64,000 bases of DNA from Deltaproteobacteria bacterium (lineage in GTDB: Bacteria > Desulfobacterota > Binatia > UBA1149 > CAITLU01), in the NCBI GenBank assembly GCA_016218925.1, contig JACRCR010000109.1, positions 42,053 through 106,052 on the forward strand, given 5' to 3'. The notes under the pieces were generated by a model, which had not been told where the DNA came from, did not search any database, and saw only the letters and a list, made by a program, of their open reading frames with translations. The translations under genes were made by a program, and so were the position numbers. Below are positions 17,549-49,860 of the stretch, piece after piece. How positions within the stretch are numbered: position 1 is the first letter of the stretch; each line of letters begins with the position of its first letter.

Positions 17549-19069
17549 TTACGACATATCTTGGCCGGCCTCAGTCCATGGGGTCTCCCGTTTGAAAGCG
17601 AGGCAGAACATTAGGTTCACGACGATGATTGCCATGGCACTAAACACGGTAATCGTGTCATTCTGAACCCAGTTCCCGTAAACAAATGGCACAAGCCCGA
17701 TGAGCGAGGCCGTGATGCCCCAGAAGGCGCCCTTGGCGCTCAGGCGGTCCCAGCAGACACTCAACACGGTTGGCACGGCGAAGCATGAGGCGACACCATT
17801 GAAAATCCACCACAGGCGGTCCAAGGAGAACAGGTGCTGAACGATCAAAGCCGTGATAAGCCCCAAGGCCGCAATTCCATACATCGCCGTGCGAGAACGT
17901 TTCACTGACAATGCGTCCAGGCGATCCTTGTCCTTCGTGTCCTTGGCCGTCAGAGGCAATTGAAGCCTTTCCCTCCTGAGCAACTCTCTCTCAGCCTCGG
18001 TCAGGGGCGCCATGTCGATGGCATAAAGCGACGCTGCCGCGCACAAAGCCGAATCGAGAGTGCTCTCGAGTCCGGACAGAAGGATCACAACGAAAAGCAG
18101 CGCGGCCCATAACGGAAGAAGCTTGACAACAGTCGCCACACCGATCATCGGAAGCCCGACGCCTTGAGGAAGGGCGATTCCCATCTCCGGGTTGGCGGCG
18201 ATGAAGCCAAGCACCGAAAGCGCGATCGGCACGATACCGAACAGGAGGCCTCCTACGACGAAAGCAGGGACCAAGTGTTCTCTTCTAATCGCGAAGCTCC
18301 GCTGCCAATACTGCTGATCGGAAATCGATCCTGCAATCAGTCCGATCGATGTCACAATTCCAAAGGAGAAGGCAACTTTCGGGTCGAGCACATTCCTATT
18401 CTGCGCGAGACCGCCGAGCCCCGCCTCAATGGAATTCAGACCGGCGACCCAGATTACCCAAGGGATGATCACAAAGATTCCCACGAGTATGAAAGCCATC
18501 TGCAGGAAGTCCGTTACGATCGAGGCCCTGAGTCCAGAGATGAGGGAGTAGGCCAAGCCGACGGCCAGCAGCAGGAACATGAGGAAGTTGAGCGGAATGC
18601 CGGTGAGGAAATTAAGCATCATCCCACCGACGAAGATTTGAACGGTCACGGCCATGATCTGGTACCAAATGTATGGAACCATATAGATCGTGTGAAGTCG
18701 CTGGTCGCAGAATCGGTGGCGGATCCAGTCCGGCAGCGTGTAGCCGCCGGGGATCTTGTTTCGAACACGCGGCGCTAGCCACGCAAAGACCACCAGCGCA
18801 AGAATGTTCGGCGCCGTAAACCAGAAGATGCCAGGCAGGCCCAATTCATACGCCTTTTGCACGCTCACGAAAAGCGCTGGGGCCCAAATCCAGGATGCGG
18901 CGATGCTTGGTGCCGCGAGGACCCAATGCACATCGCGGCCAGCGACCAGGAAGCCCGCTTGAGTCTTGGTCCATCTCGCGTCGCGAGAAGCGAGCCACGT
19001 CACCAGGATCATGACGATGCCGAAGAGTCCGATTAGAAGATATCCGACACCCTGCGAAACTACGTTCAT
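17549..19069 (-). CDS. sodium:solute symporter (SSS/SSF) family transporter
   Basis: About 13 TM helices. SSS N-terminal signature 'FLVAGRDVHWVLAAPSIAASWIWAPALF...YTLPDWIRHRF'. Its ATG overlaps the upstream gene's stop (ATGA). Confidence 0.8.
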   Translation of the reverse strand: MNVVSQGVGYLLIGLFGIVMILVTWLASRDARWTKTQAGFLVAGRDVHWVLAAPSIAASWIWAPALFVSVQKAYELGLPGIFWFTAPNILALVVFAWLAPRVRNKIPGGYTLPDWIRHRFCDQRLHTIYMVPYIWYQIMAVTVQIFVGGMMLNFLTGIPLNFLMFLLLAVGLAYSLISGLRASIVTDFLQMAFILVGIFVIIPWVIWVAGLNSIEAGLGGLAQNRNVLDPKVAFSFGIVTSIGLIAGSISDQQYWQRSFAIRREHLVPAFVVGGLLFGIVPIALSVLGFIAANPEMGIALPQGVGLPMIGVATVVKLLPLWAALLFVVILLSGLESTLDSALCAAASLYAIDMAPLTEAERELLRRERLQLPLTAKDTKDKDRLDALSVKRSRTAMYGIAALGLITALIVQHLFSLDRLWWIFNGVASCFAVPTVLSVCWDRLSAKGAFWGITASLIGLVPFVYGNWVQNDTITVFSAMAIIVVNLMFCLAFKRETPWTEAGQDMS

Positions 19070-22000
19070 TTTGCGCGCTCCTTTCGCTTGGTCGCGAGGG
19101 TTCCAAATCCATCCCGGAAATTTGCGATCTCCGTTTCTCGGCGGGTGAGCGCCGTTAACTCTGCGTCGGATAGTGATCTGCAGAGTCGGAAGCCCACGTC
19201 TGGGTTCGTATTCTGCGGAAACAGCCCTATCCCATAGTCGAAGGCGAAGCTGCGCTCACCCAAGTATGATGTGGCCCCGAGAATTGCTCGTCGCCCGTGG
19301 CTTCGTCCGGGGAAGTCGTGACACCATTCCTTGACGTTCCCCATCATGCCCGATGTGCCGAACGGGCCGAACGGTTCAGAGAGCACTGGAACATGCTCCT
19401 TTGCCATGCCAAGGAGCACTTCCTTGTAGACGCTCCGCCACGACATAAGCCACTGCCACAACGAGTCGCTAGCGGGCTCGGACGCGCCGGATTGGAGCGT
19501 AGCACACCAGCGATCTAAGTCGCTTTCTGGAAGAATCAGCGGGTACAGCTCCCATGGGTACGATACGTCGAGCCGCCCTCCGCGAGCTGCCCACGACCAC
19601 TCGTGAACTGCCGGAAGCCGGTAGCCTCCTCCGAACGCAGAGTAGTCGTCACGTGCGTCGCTAGCCGCCGGTTCTGTGTCCTCGGCGAAGTAACGAGGAT
19701 ATACGCACGCTAGTGATGGTTCGCATTGCGTCAGCCAATCACAGAACGCGGCACAGGCGTACCAGCTGACATACACGACCGGATGTCTGTACTGAGTGGC
19801 GAGTGGCCGATGCCTTGGATCCAGCGCAGAAGGCATCTCTTCCCAGAAGTAGAGATGGTACTCGTTGGTGAACTTGGCAAAACGAGGCCGGCTGTTTGGT
19901 CGAGCACCTCCTGCAATCGTGACATTCTCAACGCGCCAGCCGTTACCTTCCTTAGAGCTCAAGAACGCCAGATAGTCTTCGTTGGTGATTTCTCGTTCAC
20001 CGATTAGGAACGGACGGTTCAGTTCGGGTGGCATTCCCACCTGGCTCTCCGCCAGGAAACTCGGCGCTGCTTCCGCAACTGGCGGGGGCATGAGCACCAT
20101 CTCGTATCTTTCGAGCCGATTGGGGCCGCGTATAATTGCTTCGACGTCCCGTCCCCACCACGGATCTATCGCCGCTCGCTCGGCACCGGAAAGCAATCCC
20201 ATCGCATCTAGGTTGTGGCCGAGAAAGCGAAGACAGGAGGAGAACACAGAAAGGTCACGGCGAGCGGCGCAGTCAACCAGCTTGCGTCTCGCCAGATCGG
20301 CCAGCGCCTGGGGGCCGCGGCCAGCTGGCCCCAGGTCGATATCAGCCAGGAGATCTCTAAGGATGCCGGCCGCCGCCAGACCAAGGGGGACGTCGCCGAG
20401 CGCTCTGAGCCGGTCTATGACAGGGGACGACTTCTGGTCTTCGTTGGGTAGCGGGACCTGGACTGCTCGCTTGAGATTGACAGCGACATGCCTCGCCAGC
20501 AGGAAGGCGCCGCTGACCGAAGTCGCTCCCGCTGGCGCGATAAAATGCGCGGTCGCTACAAGCGCTCTTGCGCGAGTCGTATCTTCGCCTCGCTCGCTAC
20601 CCTCATCGATGGCTTCCACGGCCTCCTCACCGACCTGAGGGAAGAATTGCGACGCCTCGGAGTCGTTCGGCCTGACCGCGAAACGGAGGGCCGCGACACT
20701 TTCCGGATCTTCATTTCCGGCCAGTTCCAGGTTCGTTTCGCGCATCCGACCGTGACGAGTGCCGAGCGGGGCCACCTCAAGGAGCGTATGCGTTTGCAGA
20801 TCGGTTCGAACGGCCTCAACGTCGAGGCCGTAACGGTGCGAAATGTGAGCTGGGATCCCGTCCATACTAACGAGTTCCGTTCCCCGCGCGGCGAGATGCC
20901 AGACCAACTCGCCAAGGAGTTCGACCCGCTCGTTTGTCCCGACCCGAATCACCGCGCCAGTGGATCGTGTATACAAGTCACGGGCCTTGCCGAGCTGGAT
21001 GTTGTAGTCGACCACCGCGCCAACAAGTGCCGCAGCAAGCAACTCCGCTGGACGCGGATCAGTGGCGGACCGCGCGGCATGGTCTACCATCGCCGCCAGG
21101 AGTGCGGGGGATCTCGAACAGATCTTCACTGCTTCAAGTAGCGCTTCCGTACACGGGTTCGCACCCGCGGGTTCAGGACCTGCGGCTGGCTTCAGGAACT
21201 TACCGAGACGCTGGGCTGCTTCTGCACTTTCCTGCTCGGCCGCCACGACCGAGAGGTATGCCGATACGGACTTCCGACCAAATGGCAGGAGAGCAACGAT
21301 CTCAAAGGCGCTCGATACGGAAACGCTCGGCCAAACCTCGGCTGCGAGAAGGCGGTCTATCGACCCAAAATGCGTAGCCCTGCATGCGGTGATGAAACGG
21401 GCGCCGAGCGGCAGCGCTGAACATATTCGCTGTAGGAGTTCGATCGCGTCTCCTTCATCTCCACGGGTGATGTGGCCAACCTCTTCGAAACCGTCGATGC
21501 AGAGAGTCATGTGGCCTGCAGCAATGAATGCCTCTACAAGCCTCGCATCCCACAAGAAGCGCGCGGTCGGATATTCCCTTAGCACTGCGTCCGGGAAAAA
21601 TGGGACCGACGTGCCAAAGGCTCCGAGGTGCGCCCGTTCCTCACGCAAGTCGAAGAAGAACGCAGGTCCGTAGAGCCAAGGGGCACGCTGATGACAACTG
21701 AAAATCTGTTCGCAGAATCGGAACAGCTGCCACGTCTTGCCGCTTCCCCGCTCGCCCAAAAGAAGCACAGGGTGCCGCTTGAGGTCGGCCCGCGCCCAAT
21801 CCTTGAAGTATTCCCCAGCCGAAATCTCGCTCTGTGGAGGTGTGCCGCCGCCGTCTGGCGTATGTACCACACGCAGGAGGCGATCCTGAAAACGCGTCTG
21901 GTACTTGGATTGGTTAAAGTCGCGCCGAGCTTTTCCGAAGACAAGCGCCGGCAGTCCGTCTGGGACGGCGCAGAGCAGCCGGAACAGCTGCGAGAAGTCA

Positions 22001-22323
22001 AGGACTTCCAATCGCTCCCCGGCCGACCGCAGATTCCCGAATCGGGAAGGGTCGCAGGCGATCAAGACGCGATCCGCGTTCGAAGCGCCAATAAACGCGA
22101 GAATGCCCGGGACAGCTCCTTCTATCGGCTGGCTCTCAAGGAGCAAGATCTCTTCGGTCAGCCTCTTCGTGAGTCCGGTGGTACACAGGCGGAAACCTTG
22201 TAGGCCTCCCGCCAGAGGGGAGTCCTTAAGGCCAAGTGGAAGTATTGTGCTCGACCCGAGGCGAAGTGCTGGGTGACCGAGCACTTCGCAGACCAGAGGG
22301 GTCACGTCAAAGTGGTCGCTCAT
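19066..22323 (-). CDS. STAND NTPase (NACHT-type P-loop) fused to a C-terminal formylglycine-generating-enzyme/sulfatase-modifying (FGE-sulfatase, SUMF1/EgtB-like) domain
   Basis: Walker A 'LLLGERGSGKTWQLFRF' and Walker B 'MTLCIDGFEEV', followed by a long helical region. C-terminal 'HPVVYVSWYACAAFCDWL', 'YRLPAVHEWSWAARGG', 'MMGNVKEWCHD', 'GFRLCRS' are FGE-sulfatase motifs. An N-terminal ~140-aa domain is unassigned. Confidence 0.8.
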   Translation of the reverse strand: MSDHFDVTPLVCEVLGHPALRLGSSTILPLGLKDSPLAGGLQGFRLCTTGLTKRLTEEILLLESQPIEGAVPGILAFIGASNADRVLIACDPSRFGNLRSAGERLEVLDFSQLFRLLCAVPDGLPALVFGKARRDFNQSKYQTRFQDRLLRVVHTPDGGGTPPQSEISAGEYFKDWARADLKRHPVLLLGERGSGKTWQLFRFCEQIFSCHQRAPWLYGPAFFFDLREERAHLGAFGTSVPFFPDAVLREYPTARFLWDARLVEAFIAAGHMTLCIDGFEEVGHITRGDEGDAIELLQRICSALPLGARFITACRATHFGSIDRLLAAEVWPSVSVSSAFEIVALLPFGRKSVSAYLSVVAAEQESAEAAQRLGKFLKPAAGPEPAGANPCTEALLEAVKICSRSPALLAAMVDHAARSATDPRPAELLAAALVGAVVDYNIQLGKARDLYTRSTGAVIRVGTNERVELLGELVWHLAARGTELVSMDGIPAHISHRYGLDVEAVRTDLQTHTLLEVAPLGTRHGRMRETNLELAGNEDPESVAALRFAVRPNDSEASQFFPQVGEEAVEAIDEGSERGEDTTRARALVATAHFIAPAGATSVSGAFLLARHVAVNLKRAVQVPLPNEDQKSSPVIDRLRALGDVPLGLAAAGILRDLLADIDLGPAGRGPQALADLARRKLVDCAARRDLSVFSSCLRFLGHNLDAMGLLSGAERAAIDPWWGRDVEAIIRGPNRLERYEMVLMPPPVAEAAPSFLAESQVGMPPELNRPFLIGEREITNEDYLAFLSSKEGNGWRVENVTIAGGARPNSRPRFAKFTNEYHLYFWEEMPSALDPRHRPLATQYRHPVVYVSWYACAAFCDWLTQCEPSLACVYPRYFAEDTEPAASDARDDYSAFGGGYRLPAVHEWSWAARGGRLDVSYPWELYPLILPESDLDRWCATLQSGASEPASDSLWQWLMSWRSVYKEVLLGMAKEHVPVLSEPFGPFGTSGMMGNVKEWCHDFPGRSHGRRAILGATSYLGERSFAFDYGIGLFPQNTNPDVGFRLCRSLSDAELTALTRRETEIANFRDGFGTLATKRKERAK

Positions 22324-24134
22324 GTCTTCTGCCCCCGTCTCCCTCTCGCAACTGTGAGTGCTGTTTCGGCGAACTTGAGGGGCAATTTGCCCGCCCGGCA
22401 GAACTGATAAACGGGGTATTCACGAAGTGACTCCAGGCTGTCACCCCGAGTCTCCCCAAGAGCCTGTGTGTATACAAGGCCCGTCCGTATCCAGGCATGG
22501 TCAAGCTCCCCGATCTCCCGTCGCCGGGCGTAGTAGCTCACCGGGTGTTCCCATGCCTGCAGGACGATGCGTGTCCCCAGTGCACCTCCGTACTGCCGCA
22601 GGATTTCCGCACAGTTCTTCGAGTAGACGTCAACGTCTCCTCGCACGTCCTGGGGCACCGAACTTCGGTTCTCATCCGGGCCGTCGCTGCGGACTGCCGA
22701 GAGCGCGAGATCGCAGGCCTTGGCGAAGGCGTCTTCACTTGTATCGTAGACCGCGGGTCCCTTGCGCTGCTCAGTGGTGGACTTCAGGCAGCGAAGCACG
22801 AGGAACAGGAACCACGGATCGCCTCCGCTGTATTCGTCGAGCAAGGCGAGGGTCGCAGGAGCAGCGGGGGCTCCCAGAAAGAGCCGCAGTAATTCGTCAA
22901 GCTCGGCTTGAGACAGGGGAGGAATTCTCAAGACGGCGTGCCTGACGAACAAAGGCTCTGTCGCTCGGTCTATCGGGAGATCGTGCGCGGCTAGTAGCAG
23001 GCCGAGTTGCGGGCAATCGTCTGGCTGACGTTCAAGCCGCTGCCGAAGCGCGCCGAGGCCTTCCCAGAGGTGGTGGCGTGGGCTGTCGTCTCCGTTAATA
23101 GCTTCCTCGACTGTGTAGAATGGCAGAAAGACGGTGATTCTATTTGTAATCCCCGATGCCGTCGCGGCGTTGCTCAGGAAGGAGAGGAAATCACGGATGC
23201 AATCCCAGTGCTCTTGGTGCAGCCGGGCGTCTCTAAGATAGGAGCGCGCGAAGCTTGCCGGATTACCAACCATCTCGGGCGTGAAGATCCCCGGCAGAAA
23301 TCTACCAGTCGTTTGCTTCAGTCCGCTAGCTGCTACGAAGGCGAGAGATGCGAATAGGCAGTCGAGAGCCGCAAGTGCGGGCGGCGGAATGGTCAAACAT
23401 TTATCAAGGATATGCAGGAAAGCCGCGCTCTCGAAGCGGACGATGACATGCTTTAGATGATCGGAGCAACGTGCCTCGATGTAGTCTTGGAATCCATCAA
23501 TGAACTCGGGGAGGTACGACTGCTTGCCGCCGACCAAGAAGACCATGCGCCGCTCCGGCAAGAGGTACTCAAGCTCGGCGAAGAGGCTGGGGCGGTGCCG
23601 CATGGCTTCGGCGAATCCGCCAGGGGTTGCAAGGTCTCCTCTCGCCGTGGGTAGCGCAGTCGATGCGAGCCAGGACTGGAGCGACGCATGGCCCGCCTGG
23701 CGGTACTGCGAGGCTGCGTGAAGCACGATCGATCGCAGGATCTCAATCGCGCCCTGTTGGGGCTTGTCCGGAAGGGCATCGACTGCATCCTTGAGGGTCG
23801 TGCCAGTGTCCGGCCATGGTGCGGGTCGGACGTTTGCAACGCTCAGCGATGAGCGTTGCGCCGCGAGCGTCTCACGCCCTACGACAAGGCGGACCAAGCC
23901 TCGGTAGCAAGCGTCCGGATCGAGTTGGGAGAACCTAAGCGGCTCTGCACCCTGGAGGCCGGAATTCCATACGTAACGTGTGGTATCTTGCACTTCCTTC
24001 GGCGCGTGTAGCTCGGGGACCCACAACCAGACGTCACAACTACTATCATCCACGTGGACGATGGAAGCATCGTAACGTGGGCTGCTCGTCGCATGAATGC
24101 CGTCGTCGTCGACTGGGGCCACGAAGAGACTCAC
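22320..24134 (-). CDS. hypothetical 604-aa protein; possible degenerate (P-loop-less) STAND-like partner
   Basis: No recognisable catalytic motif. 'FLVGGKQS' resembles but does not satisfy Walker A. 'RIPPLSQAELDELLRLFLG' resembles the STAND helical motif. ATGA overlaps at both ends. Confidence 0.55.
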   Translation of the reverse strand: MSLFVAPVDDDGIHATSSPRYDASIVHVDDSSCDVWLWVPELHAPKEVQDTTRYVWNSGLQGAEPLRFSQLDPDACYRGLVRLVVGRETLAAQRSSLSVANVRPAPWPDTGTTLKDAVDALPDKPQQGAIEILRSIVLHAASQYRQAGHASLQSWLASTALPTARGDLATPGGFAEAMRHRPSLFAELEYLLPERRMVFLVGGKQSYLPEFIDGFQDYIEARCSDHLKHVIVRFESAAFLHILDKCLTIPPPALAALDCLFASLAFVAASGLKQTTGRFLPGIFTPEMVGNPASFARSYLRDARLHQEHWDCIRDFLSFLSNAATASGITNRITVFLPFYTVEEAINGDDSPRHHLWEGLGALRQRLERQPDDCPQLGLLLAAHDLPIDRATEPLFVRHAVLRIPPLSQAELDELLRLFLGAPAAPATLALLDEYSGGDPWFLFLVLRCLKSTTEQRKGPAVYDTSEDAFAKACDLALSAVRSDGPDENRSSVPQDVRGDVDVYSKNCAEILRQYGGALGTRIVLQAWEHPVSYYARRREIGELDHAWIRTGLVYTQALGETRGDSLESLREYPVYQFCRAGKLPLKFAETALTVARGRRGQKT

Positions 24135-24778
24135 CAGGGATTCTCCTGAGGTAGGCTTGGGGTCAGTTCATAAACGGCGGCGATTTGGTCGCGCACTTCG
24201 TCCGCGAGACCAAGAAGCCGTTCCCCGTCGGCCCGGACCCGATCGATGCGGGCTGCCGCGTCTTGAGCTACGTATTGCACTGCATCGGCGGCGCCGTCGA
24301 GCTCGCCGATTTGGGTCTCGGCGTTCCTAACCCAATAGGCGAGCTGATTCCCGAGCGCAGGCTGCTGTTCATCCACGAGAGTGCCAAGCCGGGTTGCTGC
24401 GGTCGCCGCTTTCTCCAGGGTGTCGCCATAGAGCCTGATCACGTCTGCCGGCGGGACGGTCGCAGCCGTCAATGCGTGGTGGTACGCCACCCGAAGGGAC
24501 TGGAATTCACGCAAGAGCTCGCGCATCCTCGGCTTCGCGGACAAGATGTGTTCGCGCTTTTTCCGCCACGCCAGGAGGTAGTCTACGAAGCCGATCGTGA
24601 GCGCAATGCCGAAAATCTCGGTGCCCAGGTTTAGGAAAAAACCGTCGAAGAAGTGCGAGCGATCCCCGAGCCAGTAGGACGCACCGATCACGGCGAGCGA
24701 GGCGACTGTCAAAGCACATGCAAGCACGGCGCCTAGATGCGCGAAACAGGCTGTCTCGATGCGTCGCCAGAAGATCAA
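24131..24778 (-). CDS. small two-TM membrane protein with cytoplasmic coiled-coil domain (first gene of the 4-gene operon)
   Basis: Two hydrophobic helices (res ~10-32 and 48-70), then a charged helical domain. The stop overlaps the next gene's start. Confidence 0.55.
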   Translation of the reverse strand: MIFWRRIETACFAHLGAVLACALTVASLAVIGASYWLGDRSHFFDGFFLNLGTEIFGIALTIGFVDYLLAWRKKREHILSAKPRMRELLREFQSLRVAYHHALTAATVPPADVIRLYGDTLEKAATAATRLGTLVDEQQPALGNQLAYWVRNAETQIGELDGAADAVQYVAQDAAARIDRVRADGERLLGLADEVRDQIAAVYELTPSLPQENPW

Positions 24779-25171
24779 CGGTAGATTCCTTTCCGACTCA
24801 GCGTGAGTGGCGGTATTCTATGAGGGATAGAACTAGCGCTTCCCGCATGGGCGGCTGGTGTCCATGGGGTCGCGCAGAGGAGCGAGGCGAGAACTCGGTC
24901 CCGCCCGTCCAGACCGACCGTGGCCCACGATCTCGAAGACGCCGAAAGCAAGTTGAACCCTTCTTCCGGGCGACCCTGCGAGGAGAGCGCCGGAAAGTCA
25001 ATCGTGCCCCCGCGGGCTACGACTGTTCTTCGCTGCGACCTTCTGGATTCGTATGGCCCGATAGTTCCTTGAATCGGCCAGCGACCGAACGCGTTCAGCA
25101 GCGCTTCGCATCCAATAGCAGTGGCGCGCCGCGTCGTCAGCTGGATCGCTCTGGGTGCGTTCATCGACCGG

Positions 25172-26029
25172 TCACCAGTCAAGCGCAGCCGACTCCTGCC
25201 ACTTGGGTAAGCGCATCCATTTCGGAGTAATGAGCACCTCCTTTCCGTTCCTCCGCTCGGCAGCGGAATAGCGTAACGAGAAGGGATGTATCGCGGCCCA
25301 GCCGCGATACATCCGACGAACCTCGGCACAGTCGTCATACGTCAGCACCCAAGCCGCGTTACACATGGCCTTCAGTCGGGCGGCGAGCGCCGCGTGGTAG
25401 TCCGCGTCCAGCGAGTTGAGGTAGAGCGTCGGTCCCTTTTCGAAGTATGGTGGATCAACGAAGAAGAAGGTGGACTCCGGGTCGAGTCTCTCGATGAACT
25501 GGATTCCGTCGTCGCAGGACACGCGGACGCGCTCGCGGTACTCGGCGACTTTCTCGCAGCGGCGGCGGAGGTCAGACTTGTTGAACCTGGCGTCAAGCTT
25601 CCACGCACCGACCTGCGTGATCCCTCCAATAGGCCCGCCGTTCATGATGATCCCCGAGCGATTGCATCGGTTCAGGTAGAACGTCGAAAAACCTCGGCGG
25701 AGCCGGGAAACGCGACCGCTGTCTCTGTACACACTTCGCTGTCGGCGCCATTCAACCATGCTCACGCGTGTCCTCGACAGCATGTCCAGAAATGGCAATG
25801 GCCGGTTGACCAGCGTCCACCAGAAATCGTAGATGGCTGGATCTGCGTCGTTGATGTAGATCCCGTGGGTCTCTTCAAGATACAAGAGCGTAAGGGAGGC
25901 ACCAGCTCCCCCTGCGAACGGCTCCGCGATCGCTTGATGTCCCAGTCCATTGATCCTTCGTATGTTACCCAGCAGACCTGCCATCGCTGACTTCCCGCCG
26001 GGGTAGCGAAGGGGGCTTGAGGTTCTCAT
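25172..26029 (-). CDS. Dam-class (D12, alpha-group) N6-adenine DNA methyltransferase
   Basis: Motif I 'LRYPGGKSAMAGLL...EPFAGGAG' and motif IV 'FFFVDPPYFEKG'. Confidence 0.85.
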   Translation of the reverse strand: MRTSSPLRYPGGKSAMAGLLGNIRRINGLGHQAIAEPFAGGAGASLTLLYLEETHGIYINDADPAIYDFWWTLVNRPLPFLDMLSRTRVSMVEWRRQRSVYRDSGRVSRLRRGFSTFYLNRCNRSGIIMNGGPIGGITQVGAWKLDARFNKSDLRRRCEKVAEYRERVRVSCDDGIQFIERLDPESTFFFVDPPYFEKGPTLYLNSLDADYHAALAARLKAMCNAAWVLTYDDCAEVRRMYRGWAAIHPFSLRYSAAERRNGKEVLITPKWMRLPKWQESAALDW

Positions 26030-27480
26030 TCAGCGGTACCTTCTTGATCCTGCTCCAACATCAGCCGGAACAACGGTTCCGTGCGTTTCCAGAACTGCAA
26101 AATATCTCGCGCGCTGGGCAGATCGGGCTGGTGTACAAATCCATGAAGTTCGCTGATCGTGAATGGTGCCGAGGGATCGTACCGGATCGCCTTCTCAACG
26201 ATCGTGGCGCTTGCATTGGTCAGCTTGGCTTTCGCAATCCGCTTTATCTCGGGCACCAGCTGCTTCATCGTGGGCACGCCGAAAGGAAGCGTTCGGGACT
26301 CCTTCTTCTCGATTCTCTCGATGATGGCCGGAAGCTCGCCGGTGCGTTGGAGGTAGTCCAGCACCGCGAGCTCGAAGAAGACCCGAAGGAGCACGGCACC
26401 AGCGTTTGGAAACTCCTCGCGCTTGAGCCTGACCAACTCGCGCCGGATGTCGCGGAGCCGGTCATTCCCAAACCGGACTCGAAAATCGCGCGGCAACACC
26501 GTGTTGCTCGGCTGTTTAGACCTCTTCGGGGCGGAGGGCTTGGGCTTGCTCCGTGACGCAGTCACGGAGCGATCCTGGATGATATCAGCCGGCACAAACG
26601 ATCCGCGTTTCTTGGCGGGATGCTCGTCGGATTTCCAGGATCTGAAGTAATCTCGGATGTCTTCGCTGGTGTTGAGGGTTCTCGAAGATTGCCTCCCAAG
26701 TGCTACATCCATCACGAGTTTCGTGAAACCGCGAAGGAATTCTGCCTTGGTTGTCGTGCCACGAATTCCGTGTTCTGGGTGAGGTTCAACCATCAGGCAG
26801 TCGCGGCCAACAGAGGAATCAAAGACGCGCTCGATCGTTGTGAACAGCTTGGCCCGGGGATTCTCGAGCTTGGCCTTCACCTCTTCAGGGAGATCGAGCG
26901 AGCGGGCCATCTCGGCGATGGCCCGTGTTTGTCGAGCGGACTGGATGTCTGCAAGCGAGAATCCAAGTTGGTCCTGTAACTGCTCATTGGTGTAGCCCTC
27001 GGACAGCTTGTCGAGAATGAAACTCGCCCGATTTTCAGCTTGCCACGCGAGAACCGGCGTCCCTATGTGCCTACCCGCGATCTGGCGGTCGGTAGCCCGG
27101 CGACTCGGGGCGACGGTGACGGGCACACTCGCGATTTCACTCGGCACCTCAATCTGCCGGGACAGGCGCTCCAACTGCCGCTGGAAGGGCCCTTCTAGCA
27201 AGCCGGGCGCGCGGAGACCTTTCAAGGCTGCCAAGCGCCTGTTCCCCTCGACTACCACAAATCGATCATTCTCTTTGATTGCCAGAAGTGGTTCGTTCGG
27301 GAAGTAGCCGCGTGCGGCAATGCTCTTGGCCACTTCCATCGCCTTGTCGTGCTCAAATAGGTACTGAATGATCTCACGCGGCGCTCGCGCCGATGTCTCA
27401 CGGCCAAGGCGTGGGTTCTTCGCATCCAAGTGGAGACTGGCGACAGAACGCCGCACGGTGGGCCAGCTGTCGGTTGCCAT
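26026..27480 (-). CDS. ParB/Srx-like N-terminal nuclease-domain protein with unassigned C-terminal domain
   Basis: 'GYFPNEPLLAIKENDRFVVVEGNRRLAALKGL' matches the ParB box II region (GxRRxxA). ATGA overlap with the MTase gene. Confidence 0.65.
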   Translation of the reverse strand: MATDSWPTVRRSVASLHLDAKNPRLGRETSARAPREIIQYLFEHDKAMEVAKSIAARGYFPNEPLLAIKENDRFVVVEGNRRLAALKGLRAPGLLEGPFQRQLERLSRQIEVPSEIASVPVTVAPSRRATDRQIAGRHIGTPVLAWQAENRASFILDKLSEGYTNEQLQDQLGFSLADIQSARQTRAIAEMARSLDLPEEVKAKLENPRAKLFTTIERVFDSSVGRDCLMVEPHPEHGIRGTTTKAEFLRGFTKLVMDVALGRQSSRTLNTSEDIRDYFRSWKSDEHPAKKRGSFVPADIIQDRSVTASRSKPKPSAPKRSKQPSNTVLPRDFRVRFGNDRLRDIRRELVRLKREEFPNAGAVLLRVFFELAVLDYLQRTGELPAIIERIEKKESRTLPFGVPTMKQLVPEIKRIAKAKLTNASATIVEKAIRYDPSAPFTISELHGFVHQPDLPSARDILQFWKRTEPLFRLMLEQDQEGTAE

Positions 27481-27750
27481 CGGTAGTCTTCTCTCCTTGG
27501 CTAGCAGAGTAGCTCAGCTTGGTTCGCCGACGGGAGGCCTCTCACGGGGCGCCCATCGTCTCGGCGATGCGCGGCGCGTTCTCTTCGCGTCGGTCTCCAT
27601 CGCGTTGTTCGGCTCACGCCGCGGGCTCGCGCCCGTTACGCAGGGCCCGGTACCTGAGGCACCGGTCACCGCGCAACCCGAGGGCGACGCCTAGGAATGA
27701 TCCACGTGAGCATCCTTGCGCCGGTCGCCATTCTTGGGTTGCATGGTGGC

Positions 27751-28545
27751 TCACACTTTGAAGACCGGGTGGCGTCCAAGTGGCTCGCATTCATCTGTCC
27801 ACTCGACCAGATACTCCGGCAGCCTCGTCGGCCCGCGCTTCGGAAACCGCAGGCGAAGCGCAGCACAACCCTGAATGCTGGTAAGTCCCCTCAGATCGAA
27901 CACCGCCATAGATCGGTAGACAATGAGCGCTACGTCGAGGGCGGCAACCCCCGCGACGAGTATCAGCAAGGCTTTCCTCGGCAAAGGCTCTACGACTACA
28001 AGGGAGATAAGGAGGATCTCAGCGAAGAAGGAGGCGAACGTCACGTAGACGAGTGCGCGTGGGAGGTGCGGGCGCGGCTGCGTCTCAACATGGGTGCATT
28101 CGAGTAGGTGAAGCGCAGTCTCCCAAGGGACATCACTCCGTCGGCACGCCTCGGTTAGTGGAGTCGTGTCGACCGCAACGCCGGCAACCGAGAGTCGCTT
28201 ATAGTCAAGTCCGATCACAAAGGCCGCCTTGCGATTGCGTGCCCGCGCGCGGTTCAAGATCACTAGCGACGAAGAAACAAGGACGAGCAGCGGAACAAGA
28301 TAGAAGAGCCCGGGCGAGACAACAGTTCCTGTCGCAGGCGTACCGCGGGCGAGGACGCATAATGCGAGCGCGGGAGCAGTGATCCCGGACGTGAACAGTT
28401 GCAGCTGCCAATGCACATCCTCGGCCGTTTCGCCGACCAACCTCATGCATTCAGCTCCATCCTCCCGCTCCCATTTCATCGGTTTGACTTCCATCGGCTC
28501 TCCGCCTCTCGCAGGACATTCGCCTTCGCCACCAATAACGTCCAT
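27751..28545 (-). CDS. hypothetical integral membrane protein (3-4 TM)
   Basis: Hydrophobic segments only; the start is uncertain. Lower-GC island context. Confidence 0.35.
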   Translation of the reverse strand: MDVIGGEGECPARGGEPMEVKPMKWEREDGAECMRLVGETAEDVHWQLQLFTSGITAPALALCVLARGTPATGTVVSPGLFYLVPLLVLVSSSLVILNRARARNRKAAFVIGLDYKRLSVAGVAVDTTPLTEACRRSDVPWETALHLLECTHVETQPRPHLPRALVYVTFASFFAEILLISLVVVEPLPRKALLILVAGVAALDVALIVYRSMAVFDLRGLTSIQGCAALRLRFPKRGPTRLPEYLVEWTDECEPLGRHPVFKV

Positions 28546-28854
28546 TGGCAGATTGCTCTCTCGACAAAAGCTAAGGCGACCCCGAGCATCAACGCGTCGC
28601 TTCCGCGCGCTGCTTCCCGATTCCCGTCGCCGCCTTGACTACGTATCACAACGCCCTTTCTCGCTCTCTATCGGTTCCTTAGCCAACCGTTCAGCTACCC
28701 CGTCCCGCTCTACTCGCATCTCTCCGCGGTTCTCGCTCGCATCTTGCTCCACGGCGTGCCGGGACGGAAGCGCAACGGTGCGTTGTGCCGCTATGTTTGC
28801 AGGGGCGGGGAGTGGCCGCAGGCTGGGCGATCTGTCTTAGGAGAGCGGTCTGGA

Positions 28855-29749: not shown

Positions 29750-30400
29750 GGGAGACCCCCCGGCTATGCCGGGGAGGCAGTAGTCGTTTGACAGTTCCGG
29801 GAGTGATCCACCCAACTCCCCTTCGTGAGCCGCTCAAAGCATCACGAAGAGGAGTGTTGGATGGATCAGTATCGGAACCTCAGTCCCACAAAATGGGATT
29901 GCAAGTACCACATCGTGTTCATCCCGAAGTGCCGCCGCAAGGTGTTGTACGGGACGCTGCGCCTGGATCTCGGGTCGGTGTTTCGGTCGCTCGCCGAGCA
30001 CAAGGAGAGCCGCGTAGAGGAAGGGCACTTGATGCCGGGCCACGTGCACATGCTGCTGTCGATACCGCCGAAGTACGCGGTTTCTCAGATGGTTGGATAC
30101 ATCAAGGGAAAGAGCGCGATCCACGTGGCGCGCACGTTCATGGAGCGCAAGCGCAACTTCGTGGGGCAGCACTTCTGGGCGCGCGGGTACTTTGTTTCGA
30201 CGGTCGGTCGGGACGAGACCGTGATCCGAGAGTACATCCGGTATCAGGAAGCGGAGGACAAACGGGCAGACCAGCTACAACTGTTGCCATAGAGCGCCAC
30301 CTTCAGGTGGCTCACGGTGCCGCTCGCGAGCGGCACCAATCTTAAGCCGCTTTGAGCGGCTCACGCGTTTGAAAGCCCCCGGCTTTGCCGGGGGATCGTT
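29750..30400 (+). mobile_element. IS200/IS605-family insertion sequence (tnpA-only) with subterminal hairpins
   Basis: Left hairpin 'ccccggctatgccgggg' (~29757-29775) and right hairpin 'cccccggctttgccggggg' (~30378-30396). An inverted 16-mer 'gtgagccgctcaaagc'/'gctttgagcggctcac' sits at both ends. Confidence 0.8.
29861..30292 (+). CDS. tnpA: IS200/IS605 family Y1 (HUH) transposase TnpA
   Basis: 'KWDCKYHIVFIPKCRRKVLYG', HuH 'HVHMLLSIPPKYAVSQMVGYIKGKSA', catalytic Tyr region 'YIRYQ'. Confidence 0.85.
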   Translation: MDQYRNLSPTKWDCKYHIVFIPKCRRKVLYGTLRLDLGSVFRSLAEHKESRVEEGHLMPGHVHMLLSIPPKYAVSQMVGYIKGKSAIHVARTFMERKRNFVGQHFWARGYFVSTVGRDETVIREYIRYQEAEDKRADQLQLLP

Positions 30401-49711: not shown

Positions 49712-49850
49712 AAAGCACCAAGGCTCGGTCTCGACCTTATCTTCCACTTCGAATGCTCGCGAAGTGTGGGACTTAGCACCTGCACCCGCCTTGCGGCCGG
49801 CCGGTTGCTGTGGCATCGCAGGGCCCGATCCCTCCGCCACTCTGAATAAG
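49683..49850 (-). promoter_or_regulatory. SAM-I (S-box) riboswitch with terminator-type expression platform
   Basis: Minus-strand leader 'CUUAUUCAGAGUGGCGGAGGGAUCGGGCCCUGCGAUGCCACAGCAACC...GGUGCUAAGUCC...GAAGAUAAGG' carries the S-box core (P1 CUUAUUC/GAAGAUAAG, GGAGGGA...GGCCC, GCAACC, GGUGCUAA.UCC). It is followed by hairpin GCCUCUUCC-N11-GGAAGAGGC and a U6 tract. Confidence 0.75.
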
Positions 49851-49860
49851 GTTGCGTCGC

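Follow-up and report, generated by a model that had tools for sequence, protein, structure and literature searches.

A PD-lambda-5 gene pair in a deltaproteobacterial genome combines a ParB/HEPN-fold protein with an alpha-class DNA methyltransferase

PD-lambda-5 was found by functional selection in Escherichia coli ECOR7 (Vassallo et al., 2022; PMC9519451). It comprises two genes (2461 bp; proteins RCQ13837.1 and RCQ13838.1) annotated as "ParB/HEPN, methyltransferase", and in E. coli it reduced the plating or plaque size of nine of ten phages, with the strongest effect on T-even phages. Cloning required a host without mrr, and the discoverers of the system called it a compacted prophage "RM+Abi" system, drawing an analogy to the RM+Abi systems described before it (PMC9519451). 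HHpred analysis of the first protein of this prototype gave ParBc at 96.4%, DUF4145 at 35.6% and HEPN_RiboL-PSP at 8% (PMC9519451); given the last two values, the original HEPN label was weakly supported. HEPN domains fused or linked to restriction-modification (R-M) components and to ParB domains had been catalogued earlier, including fusions of ParB with HEPN and an operon that joins an HEPN gene to ParB and a methylase (Anantharaman et al., 2013; PMC3710099). In this study, we analyzed a pair of adjacent genes, here called A and B, in a 64,000-nucleotide stretch of DNA from a Deltaproteobacteria bacterium (assembly GCA_016218925.1, contig JACRCR010000109.1, positions 42,053 to 106,052), hereafter the window. 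A preliminary description of the pair as an unconventional R-M-like or phage-derived module agrees with what we found, as the pair matches PD-lambda-5, a validated "RM+Abi" defence system.

Gene A (26026..27480, minus strand) is an ATG-start open reading frame of 484 aa, and its product was assigned to the PD-Lambda-5_A family, as a putative sensor/effector, from PADLOC, phrog_9592 and an AlphaFold2 model. Gene B (25172..26029, minus strand) is an open reading frame of 285 aa, and PADLOC, Pfam, phrog_56 and PDB comparisons identified its product as a PD-Lambda-5_B DNA methyltransferase of the alpha class, D12 family. The stop codon of gene A and the start codon of gene B overlap in an ATGA (26026..26029, minus strand), read directly from the sequence, through which the two genes are predicted to be translationally coupled. 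Both reading frames and the overlap lie exactly where they had been placed at first sight, and the motifs quoted at that time were all recovered: VVVEGNRRLAALKGL corresponds to residues 75–89 of protein A, YPGGK to residues 9–13 of protein B, and DPPY to residues 192–195 of protein B.

The pair belongs to the PD-lambda-5 family. All features of the family that can be examined from sequence and structure were found in it: the proteins match the A models and the B models, the genes are neighbours on one strand, A being the upstream one, and the domains are those of the prototype, ParB plus HEPN for A and a D12 methyltransferase for B. Protein A matched 23 PD-Lambda-5_A models of PADLOC, the best being PDLC04017 (2.8e-49); several of these matches were full-length, among them PDLC03998 (residues 12–475 against 8–464 of 466). 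It also matched phrog_9592 of PHROGs (1.1e-39). Protein B matched the PD-Lambda-5_B model PDLC04018 (5.3e-93) along nearly its whole length (residues 1–280 against 1–281 of 291). Homologues of protein A formed 3407 clusters at 50% identity among 1.84 billion cluster representatives; 190 of these clusters were found at E ≤ 1e-30, and the typical length was about 480 aa. With the two PADLOC matches, the Pfam match of protein B and the 3407 clusters for protein A, both genes are genuine and stand far above chance.

The architecture of protein A could be established more firmly than the label "ParB/HEPN" conveys. Pfam gave no match to the protein, either whole or as two halves, up to E = 10, and the ParB signal came from NCBIfam (below its cutoff), PHROGs, PDB sequences and structure searches. 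The AlphaFold2 model, built on the family alignment, reached a mean predicted local distance difference test (pLDDT) score of 93, and the protein consists of an N-terminal domain with a ParB-CTPase fold, a ParB-type helix-turn-helix (HTH) region, a middle domain, a linker and a C-terminal domain of the HEPN fold. Conservation was assessed in an alignment of 75 full-length homologues, 23–73% identical to the window protein. Invariant in this alignment were D19, N22, R24, E78, G79, R81, R82, A85, H138, W146, R218, R366 and H450, and nearly invariant were N80, K87, R127, R267 and E348. Judged by this alignment, D19, N22, R24, E78, G79, R81, R82, H138, W146, R218, R366 and H450 appear to be under selection.

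The N-terminal domain of the ParB/Srx (ParB-CTPase) fold spans residues ~8–125 (27106..27459, minus strand) and was delimited by sequence motifs, profile alignment and Foldseek. It contains an LDxxNPR motif at residues 18–24, in which D19, N22 and R24 are the invariant positions, a box I segment made up of a helix and a loop (EVAKSIAARGYFPNEP), and, located by alignment, the box II P-motif E78-G79-N80-R81-R82 (27235..27249, minus strand). The ParB-like box II reported in the preliminary description thus holds beyond this one protein, as E78, G79, R81 and R82 show no variation among the 75 diverse homologues. The family profile aligned to ParB N-domains, including ParB of PDB 4umk, through both the box I helix-loop and box II. 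The following region, residues ~127–205 (26866..27102, minus strand), is a ParB-type HTH DNA-binding region according to profile alignment, Foldseek and Pfam matches in relatives: the profile aligned to the HTH of Spo0J (1vz0, query residues 147–188) and of Helicobacter pylori ParB (148–201), and some family members matched Pfam HTH_ParB. In a Foldseek search of the PDB, the model aligned over about 280 columns, covering both the N-terminal domain and the HTH, to CTP-bound Myxococcus xanthus ParB and to KorB, Noc and Spo0J.

Motif definitions for ParB-CTPase folds, which act as general nucleoside triphosphate (NTP) switches, were taken from the literature (PMC12704722), and the equivalence of boxes in protein A was assigned by reading of the sequence alignment. 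The GxxR P-motif is intact as G79-N80-R81-R82, with Asn80 (74 of 75 homologues) taking the place of the Glu of the canonical GERR. At the position of box III (ENLQR-type), the alignment of the family shows R127...R/K137-H138...W146 instead. Nucleotide binding by the N-terminal domain is plausible from these motifs; which nucleotide a ParB-CTPase fold binds is predicted by neither sequence nor AlphaFold3 (PMC12704722).

Similar N-terminal domains were also seen on their own. A gene for the ParB N-domain alone (~34% identity, ~145 aa) adjoins the PD-lambda-5 pair in two unrelated genomes (L001:5974-6399 and L012:10908-11327). In the P2-like phage OU784549 (L033, 228..3207), a 357-aa protein with an N-terminus like the N-domain of protein A (34% identity, 7e-16) is followed by a gene of unknown function and a BspRI-like cytosine methyltransferase, which is another association of a ParB domain with a methyltransferase. 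N-domain-only homologues of this kind also occur in Wphi, L-413C and other P2-like phages.

Behind the HTH, a middle alpha/beta domain (residues 206–300) and a Lys/Pro/Ser-rich linker (residues 301–334) occupy 26479..26865 (minus strand), as delimited from secondary structure and pLDDT of the model. The middle domain was assigned to no family; its R218 is invariant, and R267 and N270 are near-invariant. The linker was modelled with less confidence at residues 301–330, with blocks in 301–320 at pLDDT 72 and 61. The C-terminal domain (residues 335–478; 26047..26478, minus strand) showed the four-helix up-down HEPN fold. This assignment rested on fold comparison, since the profile of the domain gave spurious matches only, to coiled-coil or designed proteins, when searched against PDB sequences. 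The [N/D/H]446-x3-H450 motif (26128..26148, minus strand), found by alignment, occupies the position of the Rx4-6H motif of HEPN domains: H450 is invariant, position 446 is polar (N/D/H), and position 445, where the Arg would stand, is Leu or Met. Helix 1 of the domain carries the invariant R366 and an acidic residue, E or D, at position 370. HEPN families with a "conserved H but lacks R" and with alternative basic residues have been described (Anantharaman et al., 2013; PMC3710099). The C-terminal 300 residues, at first taken to carry no recognizable motif, therefore contain the ParB-type HTH, the middle domain and an HEPN fold with invariant R366 and H450.

One homologue is chimeric in this respect. 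In a Porticoccaceae metagenome-assembled genome (L028:8001-10289), protein A is 77% identical to the window protein over residues 3–251 and 58% identical over residues 245–481, and its protein B is 59% identical. The identities suggest that a recombination breakpoint separates the ParB/HTH half from the HEPN half, with the HEPN half travelling with the methyltransferase. Saro_3948, the ParB-HEPN example given by Anantharaman et al. (2013), was not found in a search among plasmids.

Protein B is a DNA methyltransferase of the D12 family. In addition to PDLC04018, it matched the PADLOC type II methyltransferase model MTase_II PDLC03358 (2.1e-70), Pfam PF02086 (2.9e-10) and phrog_56 (2.2e-46). 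The order of its motifs, with the S-adenosylmethionine-binding motif EPFAGGAG (residues 36–43) first, then a variable region, then the catalytic DPPY (residues 192–195; 25445..25456, minus strand), places it in the alpha class. The preliminary description had called it a Dam-class N6-adenine enzyme. This holds at the level of the D12 family, but the protein is no Dam orthologue, scoring 36.6 bits with TIGR00571 (Dam family) against a cutoff of 114.85, and GATC specificity found no support. Its nearest solved relative is PDB 7m6b (5.4e-19), in an alignment that includes the DPPY. This structure is M.CbeI, an alpha-class N4-cytosine methyltransferase, and because M.CbeI has DPPY too, DPPY and PF02086 alone do not fix the base that protein B modifies. 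This base is probably N6-adenine, and less probably N4-cytosine. The need for a mrr-deficient cloning host presumably means that the E. coli B protein is an active methyltransferase with a non-Dam modification. The frequency of GATC in the 64-kb window was 0.98 of that expected, showing no avoidance and being uninformative for the target of protein B. A search of the window for avoided palindromes gave generic CTAG depletion only, with no indication of a target site.

The two genes occur together with great regularity. We examined a set of loci centred on A (27 unique loci) and a set of 80 metagenome loci centred on B, of which 76 had usable upstream sequence. Where the reading frame of A was full-length, B lay directly 3' of it in every case (24 of 24 unique loci). 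Of the 76 informative B-centred loci, 73 had A directly upstream, so that the methyltransferase is no orphan of housekeeping type, a possibility considered when the pair was first noticed. Other genomes supplied 24 unique A-B pairs, and 17 of these kept the ATGA junction with its 4-nt overlap. A fusion of A and B considered in one locus (L024) was rejected, as the locus has separate reading frames with a 12-nt gap. The identities of A and B to the window proteins co-varied across loci (82/85, 77/79, 64/65, 55/60 and 25/37%). The best 120 relatives of the window protein A, besides its 100% self-match, were 74–84% identical to it and came from Elusimicrobiota, Planctomycetota, Phycisphaerae, Acidobacteriota and others. 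The cassette was 60–85% identical across Acidobacteriota, Planctomycetota, Nitrospirota, Gemmatimonadota, Proteobacteria, Elusimicrobiota and Chloroflexota, and the neighbouring genes differed in every locus, among them a type III R-M system with integrases, housekeeping genes, and a Mu-like prophage with CHAT proteins. Because of this strict pairing amid unrelated neighbours across phyla, we concluded that A and B form a cassette that is self-contained and moves horizontally. The cassette of this clade moves among at least eight bacterial phyla nearly unchanged and nearly always as a strict pair.

Three of the A-centred loci had no B, and these held a truncated A only; in one further locus, both genes were frameshifted. 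These decayed cassettes (L027, L029, L030 and L031) are consistent with A being tolerated only where B is present or A is inactivated. Strict pairing is also the pattern that would be expected if the methyltransferase keeps the ParB-HEPN protein harmless. The same observations could be read in terms of a selfish, toxin-antitoxin-like addiction cassette, in which a toxin A is restrained by B, through methylation or direct binding, the pair would persist because cells that lose B die, and defence against phages would be a by-product or lacking in this host. The high identity across phyla with unrelated neighbours, the occurrence of A without B solely as truncated remnants, and the position of the toxin-like gene first in a translationally coupled pair would all fit this. 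We nevertheless regard it as improbable, as protection against phages has been demonstrated for the E. coli homologue, and a ParB-type HTH with an NTP-binding domain is hard to explain in a simple toxin. Addiction, moreover, does not preclude defence, since classical R-M systems behave alike. That A survives with B only and decays without it suits an HEPN effector, a ParB nuclease and addiction alike.

Some copies of the pair were found in phages or prophages; one is in the temperate Marinobacter phage AS1, beside a phage integrase. About 15 phage genomes carry an orphan methyltransferase like protein B (33–42% identity), and in prophages, fusions of a ParB-CTPase fold with a DNA methyltransferase are enriched (PMC12704722). 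These observations would be in keeping with a counter-defence or epigenetic module of mobile elements, in which the ParB-like protein would load or target the methyltransferase onto the element's own DNA and so evade host restriction, a role that has been proposed for ParB-methyltransferase fusions in phages. Such a role is very improbable here: experiments have shown the prototype of the family to be a defence system, no role would fall to the HEPN domain, and the pairs of the window and of a second locus (L002) are chromosomal and without phage genes.

Considering all the above results, we favour, on balance, the reading that the window holds an intact copy of PD-lambda-5, a mobile cassette with the logic of an R-M system but no classical endonuclease, in which protein A would sense unmethylated DNA and thereby trigger a nuclease. 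In this model, protein B would methylate a short target motif throughout the host genome. Protein A would be both sensor and effector: its HTH would read DNA, and its ParB-type N-terminal domain would act as an NTP-gated switch or dimerization gate, in the manner of ParB, KorB, Noc and the DUF262 domains of GmrSD/SspE. On unmethylated incoming DNA, this switch would license the nuclease effector. The effector step would be carried out by the C-terminal HEPN domain (H450, R366), which would cut RNA and stop the infection, with an abortive or growth-arresting outcome; nicking of DNA by the ParB domain would be a less likely form of this step. An RNase-type outcome agrees with the "RM+Abi" reading and with precedents such as PrrC with EcoprrI. 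Methylation of the host genome would keep protein A silent, and A would hence be tolerated only together with B.

The HEPN domain is the most likely effector of protein A, because its fold, His and Arg are invariant and because the closest relatives of the ParB domain are clamps and not nucleases. The opposite assignment had been proposed in the preliminary description, where the ParB domain was the cleaving module; we found no support for it, as the best structural matches are CTP-dependent clamps with an HTH. It would correspond to a type II-like R-M system, with the ParB/Srx N-domain of A serving as an endonuclease or nickase at or near the site of B and the HEPN domain being structural, dimerizing or a back-up. 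ParB-like domains are indeed one of four endoDNase folds in R-M contexts (Anantharaman et al., 2013; PMC3710099); E78, R81, R82, D19 and R24 of A are invariant, the [D/E]-G-x-x-R motif resembles those of DUF262 and DndB, and four members of the A family matched GmrSD_N. Dependence on a methyltransferase and obligate pairing would suit a classical R-M system equally well. This arrangement seems unlikely to us, although less so than addiction. The closest structural relatives of the domain are the CTP-gated clamps and regulators ParB, KorB, Noc and PadC, no recognized restriction-endonuclease fold was found in A by Pfam up to E = 10 or by structure searches, and the invariant His and Arg of a conserved HEPN fold would be left unexplained. 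In addition, Vassallo et al. (2022) dropped clones with the high-frequency escape plaques typical of R-M, yet retained PD-lambda-5.

For the sensing mechanism itself, we put forward tentatively that the ParB-type, NTP-gated clamp would load through its HTH at unmethylated sites, and that its closure or dimerization would assemble an active HEPN nuclease. The architecture, the invariant residues and the obligate pairing with a methyltransferase are compatible with this reading. If this were true, methylation status would be read out as RNA cleavage or local nucleic-acid cleavage, and the protein would be the first ParB-CTPase switch used as an epigenetic sensor of non-self.

Several points weigh against the model as a whole. 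Our literature searches found no published mechanism for PD-lambda-5, and all steps beyond the methylation of DNA by B are inference. RNase activity of the HEPN domain of A is not assured, because Leu or Met stands in for the Arg of Rx4-6H and the His alone is invariant. Box III of ParB is required for CTP hydrolysis; with box III replaced and the Glu of GERR being Asn80, protein A may lack NTP hydrolysis or bind a different ligand.

The locus names no new kind of system, and standard defence-annotation models already identify PD-lambda-5. The kind itself was known, because ParB-HEPN fusions and operons of ParB, methylase and HEPN were noted computationally in 2013. The locus is valuable as a clean example, identified with high confidence, of a validated, broad-spectrum system. 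What this study adds is a firm architecture for protein A, with a full ParB N-terminal domain plus HTH and an HEPN fold, and a list of invariant residues, which together sharpen the weak "ParB/HEPN" label; the caveat that the modified base could be N4-cytosine as against N6-adenine; and a quantified account of strict pairing and cross-phylum mobility.

The genomic surroundings of the pair are those of a defence-type island. The window has about 68% G+C, and the pair lies in an island of about 60% G+C at ~17.5–31 kb, whose flanks are formed by an aminotransferase gene and an ABC-transporter operon. An IS200/IS605-type Y1 transposase gene (29825..30292, plus strand; PF01797, 6.3e-37) marks the right edge of this low-G+C island. 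No tRNA genes were found in the window, and its sole Rfam match was an S-adenosylmethionine riboswitch (49734..49852, minus strand; RF00162, 77.3 bits). An intact prophage was considered as the context of the pair and rejected, with no phage structural genes within ~10 kb and with the flanking genes just named. Upstream of gene A, a Shine-Dalgarno-like AAGGAGAG (27491..27498, minus strand) was read from the sequence 10 nt 5' of the ATG. The promoter of gene A presumably lies within the 270-nt intergenic region (27481..27750); a scan for the sigma-70 consensus over 24000..28600 gave no promoter-like site, including upstream of gene A. A terminator scan matched a GC-rich hairpin with a 14-bp stem (GGATGTATCGCGGC...GCCGCGATACATCC; 25284..25314, minus strand), which lies within the 3' end of the coding sequence of gene B.

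Separated from the pair by 393 nt, a NACHT operon of four genes was read from the open reading frames (17549..24778, minus strand), with a 4-nt overlap at each junction. It encodes p215 (24131..24778, minus strand) and p604 (22320..24134, minus strand), neither of which matched a family, a 1085-aa NACHT-FGE protein (minus strand), whose match to NACHT was weak (1.8e-4, below cutoff) and which also matched FGE-sulfatase (5e-20), and an SSF-family membrane protein (17549..19069, minus strand; 7e-29). As the symporter-like SSF gene and the NACHT gene are translationally coupled, the SSF product might serve as an effector in the membrane and not as a housekeeping transporter. PADLOC gave no match to p215, p604 or the NACHT-FGE protein. 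The adjacency of this operon to the pair in the same island, pointed out at the start, is real, but a conserved partnership is not: homologues of p215, p604, NACHT-FGE and p264 were absent from the 27 A-centred and the 80 B-centred loci, and a functional link was rejected. The NACHT operon is thus a neighbour in a defence-type island and no partner of the pair.

In comparison with known systems, protein A resembles the ParB/KorB/Noc clamps in its box I helix-loop, its box II GxxR P-motif and the HTH that follows. It differs from them in having no ParA partner, in carrying an HEPN domain in place of the C-terminal dimerization domain, and in its context of defence and not of partition. No ParA-type ATPase was found among the neighbouring genes of the window and of the A-centred loci, and the identity of A as a canonical ParB was rejected on the grounds of no ParA, no box III, no Glu of GERR and an HEPN C-terminus. 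A classical type II R-M system was also considered and set aside: the methyltransferase motifs are present, but the partner has no PD-(D/E)XK, HNH, GIY-YIG or PLD fold.

The type IV-like enzymes GmrSD, BrxU and SspE share with protein A an N-terminal nucleotide-binding domain of the ParB/Srx fold ([D/E]-G-x-x-R) and a C-terminal nuclease-type effector, and in them DNA modification decides activity, as it would in the window pair. In contrast to the window pair, they attack or sense modified DNA, without a cognate methyltransferase and without a ParB-type HTH, and their effector is a His-Me (DUF1524) DNase, whereas that of A would be an HEPN domain. An assignment of A as a GmrSD-type enzyme was rejected, as 4 of 75 family members matched GmrSD_N weakly (7.5e-4) and none had DUF1524. 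PD-T4-2 pairs a ParB-like DUF262 protein with an HEPN_RiboL-PSP protein (Vassallo et al., 2022) and so likewise brings ParB-superfamily and HEPN domains together in an anti-phage system. Its domains, unlike those of A, are on two proteins, it has no methyltransferase, and its ParB domain is of the DUF262 type.

The RM+Abi systems, such as PrrC with EcoprrI and the DUF4145 HEPN domains on type I/III R-M subunits, resemble the window pair in combining HEPN with a methylation-based distinction of self from non-self. The window pair, in contrast, has no separate restriction endonuclease or helicase, and sensor and HEPN are placed in one ParB/HTH polypeptide. The closest counterpart is PD-lambda-5 of ECOR7 itself, which likewise has two genes, arranged in this order and similar in size, with ParB and HEPN in A, and a D12-class B, a likeness that rests on PADLOC models, domain labels, gene order and size. 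The two copies differ in setting: the window copy belongs to an environmental, high-G+C clade and lies in a chromosomal island, whereas the prototype was carried by a prophage.

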